From NCBI GenBank assembly GCA_050950505.1, contig JBMNHS010000001.1, positions 64,001 to 128,000 on the forward strand: a stretch of 64,000 bases of DNA, given 5' to 3'. The position numbers were made by a program, and so were the translations under genes. Positions 16,954-53,947 of this stretch are shown piece after piece (position 1 is the stretch's first letter; each line of letters opens with the position of its first letter). The stretch comes from Candidatus Methanomethylophilaceae archaeon. GTDB lineage: Archaea; Thermoplasmatota; Thermoplasmata; Methanomassiliicoccales; Methanomethylophilaceae. The notes beneath the pieces are model-generated. The model was not told where the DNA came from. It did not search any database and worked only from the letters and a program-made list of their open reading frames with translations.

Positions 16954-18025
16954 ATGACGAGCGACGTTGAGCCGCAGGGGACAGAGACGAATCCCTATAC
17001 GGAATTTCAATCGAAAAAGGTATTGTTCATAATCGCCTTAGTAGTAGCCTGCGTCTTAGTGTCTATAATCTCCCTTTCCCTGGGGGCTTATAAAATGACC
17101 GCCAGGGAAGTCATCGAAGCCGTTCTTGGCATGGGGGATCGCTATTCCTCGGTCACGATATGGAGAATCAGGATGCCCAGAATACTTGCGGCCGTCCTGA
17201 TAGGCACTTCCTTGGCAATCGCAGGGTCCGTCATGCAATGCGTTCTCAAAAACCCCTTAGCATCCCCTTTTACTTTAGGGATATCCAATGCAGCCGCATT
17301 GGGGGCCGCTATTGCAATTGCAATGCCGTACATCGGAATCTTCCACGGCAACTTCATCGGAAGATTCGCTTCAAGCATGTACGGCGTATCTATCATGGCA
17401 TTCCTGTTTTCCATGATTTCAGTGGTCATCGTGATTCTGTTTTCGAGAACGAGTATGGCCACTTCAGAAAGTATGGTGTTGGCGGGAATCGCCATAGGTT
17501 CAATTTTCAGCGCCGCTCTTTCATCATTACAGTATTTTGTAGATGATTCCACATTGGCATCGATTGTCTATTGGCAGTTCGGAGATCTTGACAAAAGCCA
17601 CATGGAATGAACTCGGACTTCTGTTTGCGGTCATCGTTCCGGTTTTGATTTATTTCCTATACAAACGATTGGACTACAACTCCATGGAGGCCGGAGAAGA
17701 AGTAGCCATGAGTTTAGGCATTGACACCAAGAAACTGACAATTGTTTCCATGGTTCTCGCATCTGTTGTTGCCGCAGTATCCGTATCTATTGTAGGCATA
17801 ATAGGATTCGTGGGGCTTCTGGGTCCGCATATTACCAGGAGACTGATAGGAGGAGATCATCGCTTCCTTTTACCTGCATCCGCGGCAATGGGGGCTTTGA
17901 TATTATTGATATCCGACTTCGTCGGAAGAGCGTTGTTCATTCAAGCCATACCTGTGGGTATCATAACATCGTTCTTGGGAGGGCCTCTGTTCCTGTACAT
18001 ATTAATAAAGAAAAACAAGAGGTGA
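16954..18025 (+). pseudogene. FecCD/BtuC-family ABC permease split by a +1 frameshift
   Basis: N-half (IRMPR, KNPLASPFTLG, VYWQFGDLDK) and C-half (ATWNEL, GEEVA.SLG, GIIGFVGL.GPH) join if one A is removed from the A4 run at 17593-17596. Confidence 0.85.
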
Positions 18026-22099: not shown

Positions 22100-23203
22100 A
22101 TGAACCGCGGCAGAAAATCAGAGACAATCGACGATATTTCCGTGGACGATTACAGAAACGTTACCGAAGGGTATCTCAAACGGGTACATTTCAAAAGGGT
22201 TTTTCTGATTTTCTTGGGAGTGTTATGTATCGCTTTGACCCTTGTGGCCATCAGATTGGGTGCCGCGAATCTGACATACGGAGACATAATAAGGACTCTG
22301 ATTTACAGGGATGACATACTGAACATGCACTTCGTTACCGCCCGCTTGACCCGGGCCTCCGCCGCAATACTCTGCGGGGCCGCGTTGGGTGTTTCGGGAG
22401 TGGTTATGCAGGGAATATTGAGAAATCCCATGGCCTCGCCGTTCACGCTGGGAACCTCCGGCGCCGCGGCTTTCGGAGCCGCGGTGGGGATACTTTTCCT
22501 CAGCGGAGGAAGTATAGCCACGGCGATTATGGACAGCCCGTACATAATCACCTTATCCGCGTTTCTGTTCTCTCTGATTGCAACCGGAATCATTCTGCTG
22601 CTGATTAAAATCGTTGACGCGACGCCGGAAACGATTATCCTTGCCGGTATCGCCGTAGGTGCGATATTCACCGCGGGACTGTCCTTCCTTCAATACTTCG
22701 CCGATGAAACCGCCCTTACGGCGATTGTGTTCTGGCAGTTCGGCGATTTGTCCAAGATTACCGTTCAGGGATTGAAAATTCTTGCCGTGATTACTTTGGT
22801 CTGTTCAGTCTATTTCTTTTGGAAACGCTGGGACTACAACGCCATGGAATCGGGGGACGAACTGGCCAAGGGACTCGGGGTCAACACCGAAAGAACCCGC
22901 GTCGTGGGACTGGTGCTTGCGGCCCTTGTGGCAGCCGTCACGGTTTCGTTCATGGGGGTAATCGGATTCATAGGTCTTGTCGCCCCACATATGGTCAAAC
23001 GGATAATCGGAAACGATTTCAGGTATACGTTGGCAGGATCGATGCTCATGGGTGCGACGGTCATGCTGATTGCCCACATATTCGCTTCCCATGTTTTCCC
23101 GTACTTCGTCGGCAATTCATTGCCCGTCGGTATTGTCACATCCCTCATCGGGGGTCCCGTCTTCATTTCTATACTGATAGGAAGAAGGAGGGCGTCCGCA
23201 TGA
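22100..23203 (+). CDS. FecCD/BtuC-family ABC permease
   Basis: RNPMASPFTLG, VFWQFGDL, GDELAKGLGV, GVIGFIGLVAPH. Confidence 0.93.
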   Translation: MNRGRKSETIDDISVDDYRNVTEGYLKRVHFKRVFLIFLGVLCIALTLVAIRLGAANLTYGDIIRTLIYRDDILNMHFVTARLTRASAAILCGAALGVSGVVMQGILRNPMASPFTLGTSGAAAFGAAVGILFLSGGSIATAIMDSPYIITLSAFLFSLIATGIILLLIKIVDATPETIILAGIAVGAIFTAGLSFLQYFADETALTAIVFWQFGDLSKITVQGLKILAVITLVCSVYFFWKRWDYNAMESGDELAKGLGVNTERTRVVGLVLAALVAAVTVSFMGVIGFIGLVAPHMVKRIIGNDFRYTLAGSMLMGATVMLIAHIFASHVFPYFVGNSLPVGIVTSLIGGPVFISILIGRRRASA

Positions 23204-31585: not shown

Positions 31586-32595
31586 CACCAACCGACCTCC
31601 CTCTTCCGCCTGCGGAGCAGGTATATGAAGTACGGAGCGCCGATGAGGGCCGTCAGTATGCCGACGGGCAACACGCCCAACGACTGAGCGATTATGTGGG
31701 CAAGGTAATCGCATCCCACCAGAAACACCCCTCCCGCCAGGAAGGAAATCGGAATCAGGGTCCGGTTGTCCGGGCCTATGAGAATTCTCATGATGTGGGG
31801 TATGACCAAGCCGACAAAACCTATGGTTCCCACAAAACACACGGCGGCGGCGGTAAGCATCGAAACGAAAACCAGCAGAGTGAGTCTTACTTTCTTCACA
31901 TCCACGCCCAGATTCATGGCGTGGGCGTCACCCATCATCATGGCGTTGATTTCTTTGGAATAATACGTTGCGACGGAGACTCCGATTGCCACCAAGGGTA
32001 TCACGATCATGATTTCCGTCCATCTCACTCCGGAAAGGCTGCCCATTCCCCAGAAGACTATGTCGGCGAGTTTCTCGCCCGCCATATACGTCAGCAGAGA
32101 CACCAGGGCCTGCAACAGGGCGCCGACGGCAATACCCGCAAGAAGCAAAGTTTCCATATGGGTTTCGTTGCCGACTCTGGCAAGTCTGTAAACCAGCAAC
32201 ATCGTTCCCATGCAGGCTATGAAGGCAAACAGAGGAACGGTCAGCATCAGGGCGGTGGAGGTTGCGACGAACATCATCGCGGTTGCGGCGCCCAAGGACG
32301 CTCCCGAAGAAAGACCGAGGATATACGGCGAAGCCATGGGATTTCTGAAAAGAGCCTGCATGACGGCACCGGAAACGGCCAACGCGCCTCCCACGAGCAG
32401 ACCCATGACGACTCGGGTGGCGTTGATGTCCACCACAATCGTGCGGTATGTGCTGTTTTTGACGAAAATAGCGGTCAGAACTTCTTCAAAGGACAGCCAC
32501 CACAACGGTGCGTATATCAATTCCAGATAAGCGAAGACGGCAAAAGCGGCGACTAAAACCGCTACGGTGAGAGCCACTTTTGTTTTCTTGTCCAT
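31585..32595 (-). CDS. BtuC/FecCD-family permease
   Basis: FRNPMASPYILG.SSGA, WGMGSL, GD.HA..LGV, GTIGFVGLVIPH. Confidence 0.93.
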   Translation of the reverse strand: MDKKTKVALTVAVLVAAFAVFAYLELIYAPLWWLSFEEVLTAIFVKNSTYRTIVVDINATRVVMGLLVGGALAVSGAVMQALFRNPMASPYILGLSSGASLGAATAMMFVATSTALMLTVPLFAFIACMGTMLLVYRLARVGNETHMETLLLAGIAVGALLQALVSLLTYMAGEKLADIVFWGMGSLSGVRWTEIMIVIPLVAIGVSVATYYSKEINAMMMGDAHAMNLGVDVKKVRLTLLVFVSMLTAAAVCFVGTIGFVGLVIPHIMRILIGPDNRTLIPISFLAGGVFLVGCDYLAHIIAQSLGVLPVGILTALIGAPYFIYLLRRRKREVGW

Positions 32596-46660: not shown

Positions 46661-47590
46661 ATGTTTGCCGGTGCCGAATCATGGGAATGGATCCTCGTTT
46701 TCGTACTGTTCATCGCATTGCTCGCTTTGGATATCGGGGTCATAAACCGCAAAGGCAAACACATTACGACAAAGGCCGCGTTGAAGCAAACCGCGGGATG
46801 GATTCTTGTCGCTCTCCTCTTCGGAGTGTACATATGGCACACCCGCGGAGCCCAGACCGGTATGGAATACTATGCCAGTTATGTCATTGAAGAGGCGCTC
46901 AGCGTCGACAACATGTTTGTGTTCCTTCTGATATTCTCATTGTTTGCGATACCTGACGACTATCAGCACAAAGCCTTGTTCTACGGTGTAGTGGGAGCCA
47001 TCGCGTTCCGGTTCATTTTCATATTCGCCGGCGCGGAACTGTTGGACAGATTCGATTTCCTGATGTACTTCTTCGGTGCTTTGCTGATATTTGCGGCATT
47101 GAGGACGGTTTTCGGAAAGGACGACGGCGGTTCCGGAAGCAAAATGGCAAATTGGCTGTCAAGGCACATGAGTTGCTGTCCCGAATTGGACGAAGATAAA
47201 TTCTTTACCTATCGGGACGGGGTGCGCATGGCAACTCCGCTGTTCATATGCGTCATCGTTCTCGAACTGTCGGATATAATGTTCGCATTGGATTCGATTC
47301 CGGCCATACTCAGCATAACCACGGACAAGTTCATTCTGTTCACTTCGAACATATTTGCCGTTCTGGGACTCAGATCCCTTTACTTTGCGGTGAGAGGGGC
47401 GTTGACCCACCTCAGATATCTGAAATACGGTCTCGGAGGCATTCTGACCTTCGTTGGAGCAAAGATGATGCTGCACGGTGTTTACGAATTCGACATCCTG
47501 CTCTCACTGTTGTTTGTGATCGGAGTGTTGGCGATTACAATAATCGCATCGCTGGCCGTTGAGAGAAAATCACCTGATAAATCCGTGTGA
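46661..47590 (+). CDS. TerC/Alx family metal homeostasis membrane protein
   Basis: E.ALSVDN.FVF, QHK.LFYG, ELSDIMFALDSIPA, TSNIFA.LGLRSLYF; ATG at 46661 just downstream of TTTATATA. Confidence 0.92.
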   Translation: MFAGAESWEWILVFVLFIALLALDIGVINRKGKHITTKAALKQTAGWILVALLFGVYIWHTRGAQTGMEYYASYVIEEALSVDNMFVFLLIFSLFAIPDDYQHKALFYGVVGAIAFRFIFIFAGAELLDRFDFLMYFFGALLIFAALRTVFGKDDGGSGSKMANWLSRHMSCCPELDEDKFFTYRDGVRMATPLFICVIVLELSDIMFALDSIPAILSITTDKFILFTSNIFAVLGLRSLYFAVRGALTHLRYLKYGLGGILTFVGAKMMLHGVYEFDILLSLLFVIGVLAITIIASLAVERKSPDKSV

Positions 47591-47596
47591 CACCGA

Positions 47597-48421
47597 TTAT
47601 AAGTTCTCTATGGATCCTTTCTCGGCCCTGTCGCGGTATCTCTTCGGAAGAACGAACAATTCGCCGTCTTTGTCAAAACCCACGGAAGCGGAAACATCGT
47701 AGACGTCTTCGATGAGTTTTGAAGTGATTACTTCTTTGGGAGGCCCTATCGCGACAATGCGGCCTTCTTTCATGATGATGCATCGATCGCAATATCTCGC
47801 CATCAGCGAAATATCGTGTTCCGCGACGAGAATGGTCATATCCGTTTTGACCATGGCGTAAAGGTATTCCATGACTTCCAGCTTGTATTTCATGTCAAGA
47901 TGTGACGTTGGTTCGTCGACCAACATCAACCTGGGCTCCTGAACGTATGCTTTGGCTATCAGAACACGCTGTCTCTCACCGGAAGACAGCATGTTCAACT
48001 GTCTGTTTTTCAGATGGGCGACTCCGAATTTAACCAACGTTTCTTCGATCAGGGTTTCATCGTCGTCGGTCTCCCACCATACATGTTTCAGATGGGGATA
48101 ACGACCCAACATAACAGTTTCAAAAACCGTCAATCCGAAACTGGCTCTCAGTTCCGCAGGAACATTGGCAACTTTTTTGGCAACCTCCCTCGGGGGCTTG
48201 TCCAACACAGTTTCACTGTCGATGAGAATGTCGCCTGACGATGTGGAATGCAGTCGGTTGATGCATTTCATCATCGTGCTTTTGCCACAACCGTTGGGTC
48301 CGATGAGACCAACCAGCATACCGGACTCCAGAGAGAACGATACGTCTTTGACCGCATGGAATCCGTTTTCGTAATACTTGTTCAACGACTTCAGTTCCAA
48401 CAACGGAGCATTAACCTTCAT
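47597..48421 (-). CDS. ABC transporter ATP-binding protein (BtuD type)
   Basis: GPNGCGKST, LSSGERQR, LVDEPT, EHDI. Confidence 0.93.
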   Translation of the reverse strand: MKVNAPLLELKSLNKYYENGFHAVKDVSFSLESGMLVGLIGPNGCGKSTMMKCINRLHSTSSGDILIDSETVLDKPPREVAKKVANVPAELRASFGLTVFETVMLGRYPHLKHVWWETDDDETLIEETLVKFGVAHLKNRQLNMLSSGERQRVLIAKAYVQEPRLMLVDEPTSHLDMKYKLEVMEYLYAMVKTDMTILVAEHDISLMARYCDRCIIMKEGRIVAIGPPKEVITSKLIEDVYDVSASVGFDKDGELFVLPKRYRDRAEKGSIENL

Positions 48422-51400
48422 ACATCCGCCCCCTCTTGATAAGCAAATAAGCGAAAACCGGGACTCCGATCATTGTGGTGATTGCCCCTACCGGCAATTC
48501 CTGCCCGTAGTAAAGCATTCTTGCCGCCAAATCGGCCAACATTACCAGCGCCCCTCCCAAGGCTATGGATGCCGGCAGAACCAGCCGATGATCGCTTCCC
48601 AGAACCATACGGCAAACGTGAGGCACCACAAGACCCACAAATCCTATTATTCCGACGAACGCCACGCACACGGATGTGAGAACAGAGGCCATAATCAACA
48701 TTATTCTGTTGAACCGTCTTACATCGAGTCCCATCTGCTGGGCCTGGTCTTCACCGAGCAACACAAGATTGAACTCTTTTGCCCAAACCAACGGAATCAG
48801 AGATAATGCCAGCACCGGAACCAAAACCAACCAAACCTGTTCCCAGACAACGTTTGCGAATGAGCCGAACAGCCAGGACAGCGCATTGCTGACTTTCTGT
48901 CCGGCCATGGACAGCATAAGTGTCTGGAAGGCGGAGAATGCCAGTCCCACGACCACACCCGCCAAAACGTAATTGATGGATGCGCCTCCGGATTTCTCCG
49001 CGATCAGCATCGTCATTCCGAATGCCAGTATACCTCCTATGATTGCCGTGAAAGCCGTAAGGTATATGGAATGCGGAGAGAACAGACCGAAGAATGTGAA
49101 ATCAAAAGCAATGACCGCCAATGCAGCAGTTCCCGCACCTGCGGAAACCCCCATTATATATGGATCGACCAGTGGGTTTCTGATGATTGCCTGGTACATG
49201 CTTCCGGCTATGGACAATCCGATGCCCACGGCAAGAGCGACTATGGTCCTCGGAAGTCTGGATTCGTAAACCATCAGTTCATTGTAATCCAGTCCCTTTC
49301 CTCCTTTCGATATGGCGGAAAGCAAAGAAGAGAACATCTCCGAAACCGATAACGTGACCGTGGGTCCGATGCAGAGACAGACGATAAACACGACGACCGT
49401 CGTTGCGGCTCCGATCAACATCATCACGAACAGCTTGTGTCTGCTCTTGGTGTTGTGCCTCAAATCGTCTCCGGTCAGATAATGATTGAACTTATGCCAG
49501 GCGTGTCTGTACGGATTTCTGATTTTCAGAACCAATCTGGCTATAACGTATATCAGAATAAGAATAACAAGAACAATCAGCAGGAATTCAATCAGCGTCT
49601 GCAGCAATGATTTCTCCTCAACGGGTTCGTAAACATATTCGGGAAGGGTTCCGCTTGAAGCGATGAGTCCCGCGTCATTGCCGTAAACCATCAGGCCACC
49701 TACGAATATTATAGGGGACATTCCGTAATTTTTGACGGTGGAATCGGAATACCATTCCGAAAGAATCCTGCCGTCCAAGGAAACTTCATACACCGGGGCG
49801 GTGAGCGAGTACGGCGTCATGTATATCGATTCGCCGTTTATGAGTATCGGCGGGCCCTTGGTTGACTTTATTTCGCCGTTCATTATCCGGTGTTCGCCGG
49901 TGATGCTTATTCTGCACAATCCTTTCGTGGTTACAAAATAAGTTCCTTCGAAATCATCCGTTACCACCGGAATATGATAGTTTCCCGTGAGTCCCAGTGT
50001 ATCTTTGTCGGCGATAAGGAATATTTTGCTTAATTCGCCGGTTGAAGGATCGAAATCATAAATCCCGATTCCCCCGACCACCGAACTCATACCTCTTCCG
50101 TCGCTGACGGAGAAAATTAATCTGTATTTTGATTCATGTTCAAAAACGGACACCGCGGACACATTTCCGAATTCGGTGCCGCCTGCGGTTAAAGTACGGG
50201 TGTAAATTTTTTCATCCGCTATGATTTCACCGTCGGCTTTGTCAATCACGTACAGATGTCCGTTCAGTGCCCCCGCGAACATATAATCGTCGTAAACCGT
50301 GGGGGACACGTAGTAAACCGAACCTCCCATTTGCCGGGACCAAAGCAAATTCAGATTCAGATCGAAACAGTATGCCATTCCGTTTGTGGCCGTGCAGTAA
50401 ATCGCACCGGAATCGTAAACAAGCGATCCGGTTCCTCTGAAACTGTAATTGAATCCCGACAGAGGTTTCGCTTCGGCGGGAATCGCGTCAGCATCGGTCA
50501 GAACGGAAAACGCTTTACCACCGAAAGATGTCACATATTCATTTTCGGATATCTTATTTTCATCGAGTACTCCGGGACCTTCCCTCCAATTGAATTTGTA
50601 AATCATCCCTTCGGAAGAAGAGACGTAAATATTTTCGCCGACGATGACCGGCGTGGATGTTTCGTAACTGTTGACTCCCGGGAACCGGAATTGCCACACC
50701 ACGCCGCCGTCAAGGTTGAAACATATCACTCTTGGTTGCCCGTCTTCTCCGTCGGATTCATTCTTCGTGGAGAATTTGGCAAATATGAAATCTTCGACAT
50801 AAGTCACGGCGGCGATTATGCCGCTTATTCCGTCGATTTTGTACTCCCACTGAACTTTGATTTCATCTTCCGGTATGACTACATTGTCCTGTCTGCCGGT
50901 CTGGGCCGCGTCTCCCCGTATCATTGTCCATGAGGATTTGAATTCGGGAGTTTCCACGGGAACTGTTCCGGAAGGATAGAATGCCAGAGCAAGCCCCTTT
51001 CCGTCGTATGCATCGGTTAAATCTGCCGATACCCACTTTTTATCGTCGGTGGAGTCGTCCCACCTGTAAACGTTCCAAACGGAAGTGGATTTGAATCCTG
51101 TGGTTCCGCTCGACTCGAAATTACCCCCTGTGTCAGTGTCGGAACCTATAATCTTCTCGTATACCCCGTCTATCTTCAAAGGTCCCGAATCATAGGTATG
51201 CCCGTTGGCCTCCGCGGTATTTTTCAGAACTTCGTCTATGGTCGATCCGGACTCCGCCTCATACCATGACGTTTTTCCGTTTCCCATATCAAACAACACA
51301 TTGCCTTCGGTTCCTGCGCCGTAAGCATCGGATATGTCGGACACCATCGCGAAGGATGACGAAAGCATCAGCAAGGATACGAAGAGTGCGATTACTGTTG

Positions 51401-51434
51401 ATTTTCCTTTAATGTCGGGAGCCTCCTTATTCAA
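48411..51434 (-). CDS. Fusion protein: secreted DUF4430-like domain + PQQ/BamB-like beta-propeller + BtuC/FecCD permease
   Basis: Signal peptide; WTMIRGD...TGR and propeller repeats (G.VVWQF, LLWSRQMGG, SPTVYD..MF.G..NG.LY.ID..DG); TM helix; then RLPR, RNPLVDPY..GVS.GA, GE..A..MG, GIIGFVGLVVPH. Confidence 0.85.
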   Translation of the reverse strand: MNKEAPDIKGKSTVIALFVSLLMLSSSFAMVSDISDAYGAGTEGNVLFDMGNGKTSWYEAESGSTIDEVLKNTAEANGHTYDSGPLKIDGVYEKIIGSDTDTGGNFESSGTTGFKSTSVWNVYRWDDSTDDKKWVSADLTDAYDGKGLALAFYPSGTVPVETPEFKSSWTMIRGDAAQTGRQDNVVIPEDEIKVQWEYKIDGISGIIAAVTYVEDFIFAKFSTKNESDGEDGQPRVICFNLDGGVVWQFRFPGVNSYETSTPVIVGENIYVSSSEGMIYKFNWREGPGVLDENKISENEYVTSFGGKAFSVLTDADAIPAEAKPLSGFNYSFRGTGSLVYDSGAIYCTATNGMAYCFDLNLNLLWSRQMGGSVYYVSPTVYDDYMFAGALNGHLYVIDKADGEIIADEKIYTRTLTAGGTEFGNVSAVSVFEHESKYRLIFSVSDGRGMSSVVGGIGIYDFDPSTGELSKIFLIADKDTLGLTGNYHIPVVTDDFEGTYFVTTKGLCRISITGEHRIMNGEIKSTKGPPILINGESIYMTPYSLTAPVYEVSLDGRILSEWYSDSTVKNYGMSPIIFVGGLMVYGNDAGLIASSGTLPEYVYEPVEEKSLLQTLIEFLLIVLVILILIYVIARLVLKIRNPYRHAWHKFNHYLTGDDLRHNTKSRHKLFVMMLIGAATTVVVFIVCLCIGPTVTLSVSEMFSSLLSAISKGGKGLDYNELMVYESRLPRTIVALAVGIGLSIAGSMYQAIIRNPLVDPYIMGVSAGAGTAALAVIAFDFTFFGLFSPHSIYLTAFTAIIGGILAFGMTMLIAEKSGGASINYVLAGVVVGLAFSAFQTLMLSMAGQKVSNALSWLFGSFANVVWEQVWLVLVPVLALSLIPLVWAKEFNLVLLGEDQAQQMGLDVRRFNRIMLIMASVLTSVCVAFVGIIGFVGLVVPHVCRMVLGSDHRLVLPASIALGGALVMLADLAARMLYYGQELPVGAITTMIGVPVFAYLLIKRGRMYEG

Positions 51435-52800
51435 ATCCTAAATATTCTGTAATTGTCAGGAAGTCTCTGTAGTTGTCTCCGATATAGTAAGGAATCGGGT
51501 CATCGGGGAACAGAACGTCCTGATATAGTATCAAAGTAATTATTTCCATCAACTGAGCGTATCTGGGTCCCGGCAACTGAGCCATCTCCGCCAACCCTCC
51601 GCTCAATAAGTAAATCTGTCCGTTTTTGTAAGCGTCGGTTTGCTTCCATTCCGCTGACATATTGTTCAGCATTGTTTCGTATTCGGATTCGGTCGCAAGA
51701 TAATCGTCCGTGATTATTATCGCCACGTCGGGATTCGCTTTTGCGATCAATTCGGAATTTGATTGAATCCAGCCGTAACTGGAAGAAAATACGTTTTCGC
51801 TTTGCAACCGGTTGAGGATATCGTCAACGTAAGTATTCGATCCCGATACCCAGGGGGCTTTTGTCGCGGACAGGGAGACCAAAGTCGATTTCGAATCCGT
51901 TTGGTTCATACCGATGAGATCGAGTATCTCCGACTCGGCGGAACCCAATAAATCGATTACATCCGCCGAGCGTATTTCATAACCCATCACAACGCCCACG
52001 ATGTAAATATTGTCGAGGATGGTGTCGATACTTTCACCGGCATACAGCACAATGGAATTCACCGTGGTTTTCCTTACCCTTTCCGCCAATTCATAATGAG
52101 CGTACAGTGAACCGTCACACAGCACCAAGTCGGGATTTGATTTCATTATGAGTTCAAAACTGGGATTCACATAATCCCCGATTTCCACTATATCCCCGTT
52201 CTTCTTTCCTTCTGCGACGGCATCGGGGTAATTGCTGTATTTGTCGGCGCCGACTATCGCATTTGTAGCATTCAGGGAACCCAAAATTTCTGTTATGGAA
52301 GGTGACAGAGTCACAATCTTCTTTGCCTGAGGATACCCGTATATGGAACGTCCGAACTGATCCACGCCGACCGTGGGGGCTTCGTCCTCGCCGCAAAATG
52401 CCCACGTGGATACGGAATATTCCGAAATGTCTACGTCTGTGTCGACAAGCTTTGTCCAATTCAATTCTTCTGTTTTGACGACCCAGAAATTCCAGGTTTT
52501 TTCTTCGTCATTTGGTATTCCGTTTATCTCGGTGACTTTATTGTCTTCGATGACGAGTTCGTACCCGACTGCGTTACAGGCATATTCCAAAATCTTTATG
52601 GGATCGTCATATTCTTTGAAATCCGCATCCACCCATTGAACATCCCGGTTTCCGAAATCGATGGCTATGCCCGTTGATTGGTAAGCGAAAGCAGATTGAG
52701 TGTTATTTACGAGAGCGACCGTCAGACCGGCTCCGGACAGGAGCAACACGACTGTCAACAATGTCTTGAGTTTTGTCGGGTCCGATCTCATTCGCATCAC
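51427..52800 (-). CDS. BtuF-like substrate-binding protein with N-terminal DUF4430-like domain
   Basis: N-domain IDFGN...VTEINGI.N....WNFW; C-domain KIVTLSPSITEIL, VG.D.YS.YP, P.FE.I...NPDLV, PGPR. Confidence 0.85.
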   Translation of the reverse strand: MMRMRSDPTKLKTLLTVVLLLSGAGLTVALVNNTQSAFAYQSTGIAIDFGNRDVQWVDADFKEYDDPIKILEYACNAVGYELVIEDNKVTEINGIPNDEEKTWNFWVVKTEELNWTKLVDTDVDISEYSVSTWAFCGEDEAPTVGVDQFGRSIYGYPQAKKIVTLSPSITEILGSLNATNAIVGADKYSNYPDAVAEGKKNGDIVEIGDYVNPSFELIMKSNPDLVLCDGSLYAHYELAERVRKTTVNSIVLYAGESIDTILDNIYIVGVVMGYEIRSADVIDLLGSAESEILDLIGMNQTDSKSTLVSLSATKAPWVSGSNTYVDDILNRLQSENVFSSSYGWIQSNSELIAKANPDVAIIITDDYLATESEYETMLNNMSAEWKQTDAYKNGQIYLLSGGLAEMAQLPGPRYAQLMEIITLILYQDVLFPDDPIPYYIGDNYRDFLTITEYLGFE

Positions 52801-52863
52801 ATTGATTTCTCATAAGGGTGTTTTGTAAGAGGTTTCGAAAAGGTTTGTTTAAGGTATTTGGAT

Positions 52864-53433
52864 TTAAGCCTTGAAGGGGCCTTCGTTCATCCAATCGTCC
52901 ACATCAATGGGAGTAGGTGCACTTGAACCCGCATACACCGAAAAGAAGAATATCGTGGAAGTAGACTGTATGATCTTGAACTCCTGATCGTCGTCATACC
53001 CTCCATGGCCCTTGAAACTCAACCAACCATTTGAACTTGCGAAGTAACCCCATTGATCATCTTCAGGAAAGGTCACACTCGCAAGCATTGCTTCTTCGCC
53101 GGTATCTGAATACAAATAAGCGTTAACCGACCATGAACCTGTTTCATCAACTGTTGAAAGGTATCCTCCACTGAGTTCATACTCGAGATTGGCATCTTTC
53201 ATGGCCTTATCGAAACCCTCGGCAGGATTGGCGCCTTTGGCACTGTACCATCCGTTTCGATCATCGTTTGCATCAAAATACATGTAGAAATGATATTCCG
53301 TGGCATCATCACCGAAATGATATTCCGTGGCATCATCACCGGAGTCCATGAGAACACCGACGCCGTATCCGACACCGACACCCACCAGCAATCCGATTAC
53401 TACGAATGCAATCAATTTATTGTCAATATCCAT
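52864..53433 (-). CDS. Membrane-anchored extracellular protein, aromatic-rich, possibly DUF4430-like
   Basis: ATG 53433 with SD GGTGA; N-terminal TM; first gene of the uptake cluster. Confidence 0.7.
   Translation of the reverse strand: MDIDNKLIAFVVIGLLVGVGVGYGVGVLMDSGDDATEYHFGDDATEYHFYMYFDANDDRNGWYSAKGANPAEGFDKAMKDANLEYELSGGYLSTVDETGSWSVNAYLYSDTGEEAMLASVTFPEDDQWGYFASSNGWLSFKGHGGYDDDQEFKIIQSTSTIFFFSVYAGSSAPTPIDVDDWMNEGPFKA
53287..53340. repeat. Perfect 27-bp tandem duplication (in-frame GDDATEYHF x2)
   Basis: GAAATGATATTCCGTGGCATCATCACC repeated at 53287 and 53314. Confidence 0.95.
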
Positions 53434-53448
53434 TATTTCACCATTTGG

Positions 53449-53499
53449 TTGGATAAAATATCCAATGCAGACAAATTGTAAGGGGGATATATAATCCAA
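53449..53499. promoter_or_regulatory. Two operator candidates (TTGGA-N7-TCCAA type)
   Basis: TTGGA-taaaata-TCCAA at 53449-53465 and GGGGA-tatataa-TCCAA at 53483-53499; the second straddles the minus-strand TTATATA box. Confidence 0.7.
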
Positions 53500-53947
53500 T
53501 TGGTTCGAACTTATTTTATTAATAATTCGAAATAAATTAAATACGGCGGAAAGTCAGATTTTAAGATTTCTGAGAAACCTGCCCAATTTAAAAAGTAATA
53601 TGCACATTAAGGTTCGGAGGATTTGTTCAAACAACCGAACCGTAGCGGGGACCAAAACCGGGCAACGACGGGGAAAAAAATCGCAGAAACCACTTTGATC
53701 GTTTCTTCGGAAACCGGTCGGTGCAGAAACTTGCGCAGTACCCCCTCGTCTTTCGGAGCAGTGCTGACCCTCAACCGAGTGGTCGTGGAATAAAATGACG
53801 CCCGGAATCGGATAAGATCCGTATGATTGGCGCGGCTGAAGGCCGCGCTGATATCAGGAATTCTTACATATTTTAGCTGATGCTATGTTATTTTGATATA
53901 CTTTGAAGGTAAATTAGTGGTGCAGACCACTTTTTAAATGGAATAAG

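Follow-up and report, generated by a model that had tools for sequence, protein, structure and literature searches.

What would an archaeal ATP-binding cassette (ABC) importer do with a large extracellular module built into its own permease? The question is raised by a locus in a 64,000-nucleotide (nt) stretch of the genome of a Candidatus Methanomethylophilaceae archaeon (assembly GCA_050950505.1, contig JBMNHS010000001.1, positions 64,001 to 128,000; hereafter the window), where four co-oriented open reading frames (ORFs) on the minus strand, within positions 47597-53433, encode a small anchored protein, a BtuF-like protein, a fusion protein and an ATPase. An earlier reading of the letters alone (the sequence-only reading) had described this architecture and proposed that it captures and relays cobamides or another tetrapyrrole; the four-gene arrangement stands as first described, ORFs, Pfam domains and hydropathy being in agreement. 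The operon unites the three parts of a type II ABC importer of the FecCD/BtuCD-F class, namely a FecCD permease, a Peripla_BP_2 protein and an ABC ATPase, and each of its extracellular components would carry a domain resembling the β-domain of transcobalamin, probably so in the case of the small protein. The four genes are:

52864..53433, minus strand: small membrane-anchored protein, 189 amino acids (aa) from its ATG (ORF, hydropathy, profile comparison).
51427..52800, minus strand: BtuF-like substrate-binding protein of 457 aa, whose residues 11-33 form an N-terminal anchor or signal (ORF, Pfam, hydropathy).
48411..51434, minus strand: fusion protein, 1007 aa, comprising a signal or anchor, an SLBB-like domain, an eight-bladed propeller, an extra transmembrane helix (TM0), a cytoplasmic linker and a FecCD permease.
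47597..48421, minus strand: ABC ATPase of the BtuD/FecE class, 274 aa (ABC_tran, 108.6 bits).

The BtuF-like and fusion genes overlap by 8 nt and the fusion and ATPase genes by 11 nt, and the arrangement is therefore typical of an operon. The 1007-aa ORF of the fusion is uninterrupted; that of the small protein remains open up to a TTG at 53499, and the ATG chosen here agrees with the start in relatives. In one run of a metatranscriptomic library, small contigs covered the ATPase, fusion and BtuF-like genes in part; as DNA carry-over is possible and 15 of 30 bins were without coverage, they were not taken as evidence of expression.

The transporter core and the helix that joins it to the extracellular module are located as follows.

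51604..52317, minus strand: Peripla_BP_2 domain (cluster A, BtuF/ShuT/IsdE class), residues 162-399 of the BtuF-like protein (Pfam PF01497, 85.7 bits, cut-off 27.5).
48435..49400, minus strand: FecCD/BtuC-type permease domain, residues 679-1000 of the fusion (Pfam PF01032, 276 bits).
49512..49592, minus strand: extra transmembrane helix TM0, core residues ~615-641 of the fusion (hydropathy and sequence).

The permease, binding-protein and ATPase parts each score above their Pfam cut-offs, the ATPase through PF00005 (ABC_tran), and the FecCD model is covered almost whole (profile positions 2-311 of 311). In these hidden Markov model (HMM) searches, FecCD, Peripla_BP_2 and PQQ_2, all three put forward by the sequence-only reading, were matched above the Pfam cut-offs. 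In NCBIfam, the models closest to the operon parts are BtuC, FhuB, FecCD, BtuF and IsdE and, for the ATPase, those of the corrinoid and F420-0 transporters, all of them scoring under the equivalog cut-offs; the F420-0 ABC ATPase model gave 214 bits. The small protein matched no Pfam or NCBIfam family.

By hydropathy, each of the three extracellular proteins has a hydrophobic segment at its N-terminus, and all three are membrane-tethered through such anchors; in the small protein, the anchor (residues 1-31) is followed by an ectodomain of ~145 aa. The fusion has an additional segment at 607-641, ahead of nine permease blocks, and a basic linker of ~37 residues (KIRNPYRHAWHK...) between TM0 and the permease domain. 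BtuC-type permeases have a cytoplasmic N-terminus, which an ectodomain outside, one extra helix and a cytoplasmic linker would fit.

Large ectodomains on FecCD permeases are unusual, and for that reason only we considered whether the 1007-aa ORF might have arisen by chimeric assembly or by read-through from one gene into the next, an explanation that found no support and that we practically discount. Besides the coherent membrane topology, what speaks against it is the conservation of the fusion. Among 60 proteins retrieved with the ectodomain alone (residues 30-640), 59 also have FecCD, with lengths of 885-1006 aa, and the remaining one sits on a contig of 2010 nt; their names include ‘cobalamin import system permease protein BtuC [Candidatus Methanoplasma termitum]’ and Methanomassiliicoccaceae metagenome-assembled genomes. 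The ectodomain was matched in 188 of 261 genomes of the order Methanomassiliicoccales, among them 143 of the 173 genomes of the window's own family and, weakly (best E 1e-4 to 3e-24), 44 of the 87 genomes of six other families; all 150 matches listed at E≤1.8e-25 belong to genomes of the window's family. Frames of 950-1062 aa hold 91 of the 114 matches at E≤4.9e-60, in many genomes, while 10 lie in longer and 13 in shorter frames. Several of the latter are at contig ends, and closed contigs are among those with frames of 950-1062 aa.

Seven matches in longer frames (1256-1546 aa) were read again, and in all seven the ectodomain and the permease share one frame. The idea that these very long frames are triple fusions was rejected: five are ordinary fusions in which the absence of a stop codon lets the frame extend across the 3' part of the gene before it. 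In the other two, one consists of two tandem ectodomain units (locus L065) and one continues into the next permease gene, which lies in another frame. The sampled words of the gene are present in 19 DNA runs from 15 studies (digesters, bioreactors, landfill, wastewater). An 8547-nt contig of one of these other studies covers 47500-53576, and contigs of two further studies bridge the junction between ectodomain and permease, so that the junction is spanned in three other studies. The survey of relatives that the sequence-only reading had called for thus comes out in favour of a genuine fusion.

A pattern scan of the genomes of 185,579 species returned 57 relatives, with titles including Candidatus Methanomethylophilaceae, Methanomassiliicoccaceae, Methanoprimaticola, Methanogranum and Methanarcanum; one weak match is a Gemmataceae propeller. 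The names of the relatives bear out the Methanomassiliicoccales lineage assumed in the sequence-only reading. Ten records are labelled as gut bacteria (Dialister, Prevotella, Bacteroides, Lachnospiraceae and others) and belong to a single ‘cleanbin’ series (L079, L080, L086, L095, L100, L104, L105, L117, L118 and L119). These records encode the archaeal-type ectodomain at 32-44% identity, and the bacterial titles of the ten bins are probably wrong. Three relatives have in-frame stop codons within the ectodomain match (G179:C3:5755-7461, two TAG; G079:C20:2581-4308, one TAG; G154:C270:5970-7724, one TAA). The order is reported, in part of the text of PMC10804542, to have pyrrolysine-synthesis genes, and the in-frame TAGs could reflect read-through or broken genes.

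At the window's locus itself, the small gene contains a perfect 27-nt tandem duplication (2.0 copies) at 53287-53341, which encodes DDATEYHFG twice. Contigs from three other studies are without 27 or 30 nt at this position, and the duplication is therefore taken as strain-specific. In two of the three, 3 nt are also deleted in frame at 51142, within the N-domain of the fusion.

The extracellular module on this permease consists of an N-terminal domain (N-domain) and a propeller, and a related N-domain precedes the substrate-binding domain of the BtuF-like protein.

52327..52683, minus strand: N-domain of the BtuF-like protein, residues 40-158, β-grasp (AlphaFold2 model, structure and profile comparison).
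50940..51308, minus strand: fusion N-domain (residues 43-165), into which a hairpin rich in Gly, Ser and Thr is inserted (hhalign, models).
49599..50939, minus strand: eight-bladed β-propeller of the BamB/PQQ type, residues 166-612 of the fusion (PQQ_2, model, Foldseek).

That the N-domains of the two larger proteins resemble each other, as had been noticed from the letters, is borne out at the level of homology. Pairwise, the similarity is weak (BLASTP E 0.012 and 0.03). Profiles built from 21 fusion N-domains and from 21 BtuF N-domains matched each other in hhalign over 96 columns with 96.8% probability (E 2.7e-10). The first strand reads DxGNGxxxW in the fusion and IDFG(D/N)xxxxW in the BtuF-like protein, a helix and conserved tryptophans are common to both, and D49, G51, G53, W57, W120, W125 and W134 are invariant in the fusion N-domain alignment. 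For the small protein, which had been said to follow the same pattern loosely, the likeness holds for the first half: a profile of 18 small-protein domains matched those of the BtuF and fusion N-domains with 92.1% and 94.1% probability, respectively (79% when seven sequences were used), over the first 46-50 columns only, and a direct BLASTP comparison of the small protein with the BtuF N-domain gave no match (E 1.7). Its model in the ESM Atlas is poor (pLDDT 0.35; pLDDT being the predicted local distance difference test) and yielded no usable neighbour. The small anchored protein probably provides a third SLBB-like domain of the operon.

The fold of the BtuF N-domain was predicted with AlphaFold2 (pLDDT 85, predicted template modelling score (pTM) 0.79) as β-β-α-β-β-β-β-β, and the strand order β-β-α-β recurs in the model of the fusion ectodomain. 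When the model of the BtuF N-domain was compared with 48,161 representative chains (VIA), the top chain was haptocorrin (4kkj_A, Z 9.6, root-mean-square deviation 2.7, 92 residues aligned, chain residues 310-411), followed by bovine transcobalamin (2bb6, Z 8.9), intrinsic factor (2pmv, 8.7), the isolated transcobalamin β-domain (5no0, 8.7) and 3u7z_B of Ruminococcus gnavus (8.0). These five chains align over 88-93 residues; the sixth, a MoaD-like β-grasp, has a Z of 5.0. The structural check against the transcobalamin β-domain proposed with the sequence-only reading thus ranks the β-domains of B12 binders, together with 3u7z, above all other chains. Foldseek returned nothing at E≤0.001 for the same domain and ranked the transcobalamin entries high, amid ubiquitin-like domains (probability up to 0.99, TM score up to 0.56). 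PDB sequence-profile searches with both N-domain alignments gave only chance-level rows (LRP6, designed proteins) and no B12 binder.

A link to the DUF4430 clade emerges from profiles. Searched against 1.84 billion proteins, the BtuF N-domain profile gave 85 matches, mostly binding proteins of 440-480 aa, and it also reached the repeat proteins P0097, P0108, P0112 and P0125 (E 6.3e-15 to 5.5e-7), all of which pass DUF4430 (32.7-63 bits); the stretches matched by the profile and by Pfam DUF4430 overlap in P0097, P0108 and P0132. The Ig-repeat proteins P0075, P0131 and P0123 among these matches look spurious and were set aside. Sub-threshold DUF4430 matches occur in 4 of 21 BtuF N-domains (best E 0.003) and in 1 of 18 small-protein relatives. 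From sequence profiles and predicted models, we conclude that the N-domains are divergent members of the transcobalamin-like SLBB clade, placed outside Pfam DUF4430 by the threshold of that family. The DUF4430/transcobalamin-like label given to them from the letters can thus be kept for the predicted fold and the profile link, and has to be given up for the Pfam model, which misses the window's own proteins.

The propeller has become clearer in type and has moved away from the comparison first made for it. Pfam PQQ_2 matches fusion residues 335-405 with 33.3 bits (cut-off 27.6), and the ectodomain model, built with 36 sequences (pLDDT 92.3, pTM 0.93), continues beyond the N-domain with 32 strands, which make up eight blades of four strands each, so that the assignment to a PQQ/BamB-like propeller is confirmed by a family match and a predicted fold. 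The high pTM suggests a fixed arrangement of the N-domain on the propeller. With the ectodomain as query, Foldseek found tetrathionate hydrolase best (E 9.5e-15), then BamB, YxaL (to 1e-11) and PQQ dehydrogenases. Comparison of the propeller by VIA placed YxaL (Z 34.8), BamB (31.3) and Rv3035 (29.9) foremost, at sequence identities of 9-15%, and the PQQ dehydrogenases below these scaffold propellers (Z 23.8-25.6). The BtuG2 and BtuG1 chains (8ptf_A, Z 19.2; 8blw_B, 19.1) come at ranks 39-40, level with unrelated seven-bladed and WD40 propellers, and the propeller is therefore not a BtuG relative. The term ‘analogue of BtuG’ of the sequence-only reading can therefore be meaningful only for a presumed function.

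The surroundings of the fusion in relatives show which parts travel together. Twenty loci were picked by hand for long contigs and a spread of genera, and they form a non-random sample. The order BtuF-like protein (with its N-domain), fusion, ATPase is kept in all 20, with the BtuF-like gene directly upstream of the fusion. The fusion is the only permease encoded in 16 of them; an additional plain FecCD permease lies between fusion and ATPase in the other four (L040, L041, L047 and L049), so that a transporter may need no more than one ectodomain. A homologue of the small protein is found upstream in 11 of 20 loci by BLASTP and in 13 by HMM (E≤1.5e-13), where it adjoins the BtuF-like gene on its upstream side. 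Four more loci have an anchored protein that is alike by eye, one of them with weak support (E 0.022), and three of the 20 have no small-protein-like gene upstream. Four relatives (L043-L046) encode a small protein of 304-359 aa in which the domain is duplicated in tandem. Architectural variants also occur: two tandem SLBB-plus-propeller units precede the permease in L065, and the binding protein is doubled in L067 and P0061 (874 aa).

A second, unfused locus (L061) lies outside the window in the same genome, and its genes are:

G000:C1:198500-210500, first part: a 465-aa BtuF-like protein with N-domain; a 621-aa protein made of an N-domain and a PQQ-type propeller with its own C-terminal anchor.
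G000:C1:198500-210500, continued: an anchored BspA-type LRR protein; a plain FecCD permease; an ATPase; an anchored PQQ-like protein; a 440-aa protein.

The C-terminal anchor of the 621-aa protein is of the same kind as TM0 of the fusion. Since the ectodomain is fused to the transporter in one locus and adjacent to it in the other, the two would work together. The 440-aa protein shows faint N-domain-like repeats. Eight Peripla_BP_2 matches occur in the genome, and only two binding proteins have the N-domain. Further FecCD genes in the window lie at 31609-32532 (minus strand), 22223-23179 (plus strand) and 17050-18010 (plus strand), the last of which is split into two overlapping pieces, the first containing one in-frame TGA, and may be broken.

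These neighbours, together with the nearest folds of the propeller, bear on a quite improbable alternative, in which the ectodomain has no ligand and is a docking platform, in the manner of BamB and Rv3035, for the binding protein or for adhesin-like surface proteins, the β-grasp domains serving protein-protein or glycan contacts. The scaffold propellers YxaL and BamB are indeed closest in structure, and Rv3035 stably complexes FecB, a protein of the Peripla_BP_2 class, through blade B while leaving the FecB ligand site open, as passages of PMC13041763 describe. The platform reading also agrees with the anchored BspA-type LRR protein and the second anchored PQQ-like protein of L061, and with relatives in which Flg_new, LRR_5 or CarboxypepD_reg domains are joined to the binding protein that has the SLBB domain; such adhesin-like extensions, the LRR_5 parts being of BspA type, were seen in some of P0080, P0086, P0088, P0089 and P0111. 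A docking platform would leave unexplained why a domain like that of B12 binders stands on three different proteins of the operon, and it is compatible with corrinoid capture rather than exclusive of it.

Whether the operon captures and imports a corrinoid is, on the analysis as a whole, an evenly balanced proposition. A corrinoid is suggested because of the match of three operon domains to the fold of B12 binders, a prediction of 2007, a precedent in Bacteroides and the abundance of BtuC genes. The isolated transcobalamin β-domain binds cobalamin (entry title 5np4). Extracellular transcobalamin-like SLBB proteins were predicted to scavenge B12 in 2007, some of them fused to a β-propeller and encoded beside paralogous SLBB proteins (passages of PMC1796856). 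In Bacteroides BtuGH, a small B12-binding domain stands N-terminal to the propeller and both domains bind B12, according to part of PMC13616437, and the Methanomassiliicoccales are described in PMC10804542, in the parts consulted, as rich in BtuC genes and dependent on corrinoid methyltransferases.

A number of observations weigh against a corrinoid. The genome (99.6% complete) has CbiC, CbiD, CbiB and CobS and is thus no evident corrinoid auxotroph; likewise, the SLBB authors noted, in a passage of PMC1796856, that archaea have the synthesis and may scavenge another metabolite. No cobamide gene adjoins the operon among the window ORFs. The strict NCBIfam equivalog cut-offs for BtuC (PRK09535, 214.3 against 461), BtuF (PRK03379, 27.1 against 234) and BtuD (PRK09536, 214.4 against 537) are missed. 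In PDB profile searches, the binding domain is nearest to 4m7o, an ‘iron-binding protein’ (1.8e-34), and to heme-binding ShuT (5.8e-20), ahead of BtuF (3.6e-14). The permease matches FhuB (4.3e-50), BtuC (8.2e-46) and HmuU (8.8e-45), and HI1471 and BhuU as well, all from 4e-50 to 2e-38; a substrate inferred from the permease was rejected, as the search does not discriminate among these five. Neither the permease nor the binding domain thus distinguishes B12 from heme or iron chelates. Pfam DUF4430 (PF14478, cut-off 23.8 bits) has no match at E≤0.1 in the four window proteins, none at E≤1 across the whole genome and none among the 21 fusion N-domains. The 1.33-Mb genome has 12 FecCD matches (two being pieces of one interrupted gene), so that the system is one of many such. 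In Lactobacillus sakei, finally, transcobalamin-like proteins have been tied to heme uptake (part of bioRxiv 10.1101/864751).

The same machine might accordingly serve another cargo, such as heme, a nickel or cobalt tetrapyrrole precursor, an F430-related compound or an iron chelate, with the SLBB-like domains as general binders of soluble ligands, a reading that we find rather unlikely. It gains from the neighbours of the binding domain just named, from IsdE and F420-0 models that score at least as high as BtuF in NCBIfam, from the markers of de novo corrin synthesis and the 2007 caveat on archaea (PMC1796856, in the passage cited), and from the L. sakei pair, whose link to heme uptake comes from a deletion mutant in the portion of bioRxiv 10.1101/864751 used here. 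It has to contend with the N-domain, whose best structural matches are the β-domains of B12 binders, far above other β-grasp folds, and with the absence of siderophore or heme-utilization genes adjoining the operon among the window ORFs. These methanogens are also not known to have cytochromes, so that a need for heme is not evident.

For corrinoid import, we infer a mechanism in which ligand, hand-off and propeller role are parts of one proposal. The cargo would most likely be a cobamide or cobinamide. These cells are not known to have an outer membrane or a closed periplasm, and without an outer membrane they would lose any binder that is soluble and any ligand that is bound only loosely. 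At the cell surface, the SLBB domains would trap the ligand and hold it near the transporter, raising the local capture rate. The propeller would be a rigid eight-bladed platform that places the SLBB domain beside the docking site, and its further roles may include ligand binding or docking of the binding protein. After capture, the ligand would move into the cleft of the BtuF-like domain; this domain would dock on the permease dimer as in BtuCD-F, with ATP hydrolysis by the ATPase driving import. In loci where the fusion is the only permease, its homodimer would have two ectodomains flanking the docking site. A complex prediction of the fusion ectodomain with the mature BtuF-like protein scored 0.00 (‘no answer’), which counts neither for nor against binding.

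In its fullest form, this proposal is held tentatively and somewhat short of even: the system would be the first archaeal extracellular machine for cobamide capture, and no type II ABC permease before it would have had a capture module built in. A transcobalamin-like domain, set on a propeller and tethered to each BtuC-type subunit, would seize cobamides at the surface, possibly from binding proteins of competitors or hosts, and pass them, with the small anchored SLBB protein, to the SLBB-bearing BtuF, in convergence with the BtuJ/H/G relay of Bacteroides but in a cell that has no outer membrane. According to the main text of PMC10804542, in part, the methyl-reducing methanogens of the order run their energy metabolism on corrinoid proteins, and B12 exchange is proposed to shape the niche of Methanomassiliicoccales in rumen and gut. 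If the proposal is true, these archaea would have a concrete device for cobamide competition, the prokaryotic transcobalamin-like (DUF4430) domain would gain a defined partner, and type II ABC importers would gain a new architecture, with the permease itself bearing a large extracellular module. The presence of fused and unfused forms in one genome would ease domain-by-domain experiments.

Already known are the parts themselves and the prokaryotic transcobalamin-like scavengers, including a propeller fusion (passages of PMC1796856). In the literature searched on DUF4430, SLBB, transcobalamin-like proteins and BtuC in these archaea, we found no BtuC-type permease or BtuF fused to such domains, no module of this kind joined to a type II ABC permease by an extra helix, and no description of a permease module and a BtuF-borne domain conserved across a methanogen family. 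In the main text of PMC10804542, supplements aside, none of the terms propeller, fused, fusion, N-terminal and extracellular domain is used.

Compared with BtuCD-F and other type II importers, the operon has all three core parts and a permease that aligns end to end with BtuC, HmuU and FhuB; it differs in the extracellular module of ~610 residues and the extra transmembrane helix of the permease, and in the N-domain of ~120 residues on the binding protein. With the β-domains of transcobalamin, intrinsic factor and haptocorrin and with the DUF4430 clade, the N-domains share the predicted fold, the profile link and the extracellular location, whereas the DxGNGxxxW first strand is characteristic here and no partner of the α/α-toroid type is present. 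The SLBB operons of 2007 likewise have several paralogous SLBB proteins, one of them fused to a propeller, but their partner transporter is of the CbiO/CbiQ type (energy-coupling factor, ECF) and that of the present operon is of the BtuCDF type; no fusion to a permease or binding protein is described, and ‘ABC transporter’ and ‘BtuF’ have 0 occurrences, in the passages of PMC1796856 searched. The Lsa1836-1840 genes of L. sakei also encode extracellular transcobalamin-β-like proteins with a tetrapyrrole importer; as far as part of bioRxiv 10.1101/864751 describes it, that system has an ECF transporter, separate soluble proteins, an α-domain partner and no propeller, and its proposed ligand is heme.

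BamB, YxaL and Rv3035 have the same eight-bladed fold as the propeller, and Rv3035 binds a protein of the same class as the BtuF-like domain, FecB. They have neither a transporter fusion nor an SLBB domain, and the Rv3035-FecB pair acts in cell-envelope synthesis, not import (passages of PMC13041763). The relay of Bacteroides thetaiotaomicron (BtuJ, BtuH, BtuK and BtuG-BtuB) resembles the operon in encoding several surface B12 binders with a transporter, and the order of BtuGH, with its small domain ahead of the propeller (PMC13616437, in part), is that of the SLBB-like domain here. There is no homology between the two: BtuG is seven-bladed, and the folds of BtuH and BtuJ are different ones. 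In Bacteroides, lipoproteins of the outer membrane supply a TonB-dependent transporter, whereas in these archaea the module stands on the cytoplasmic-membrane permease itself.

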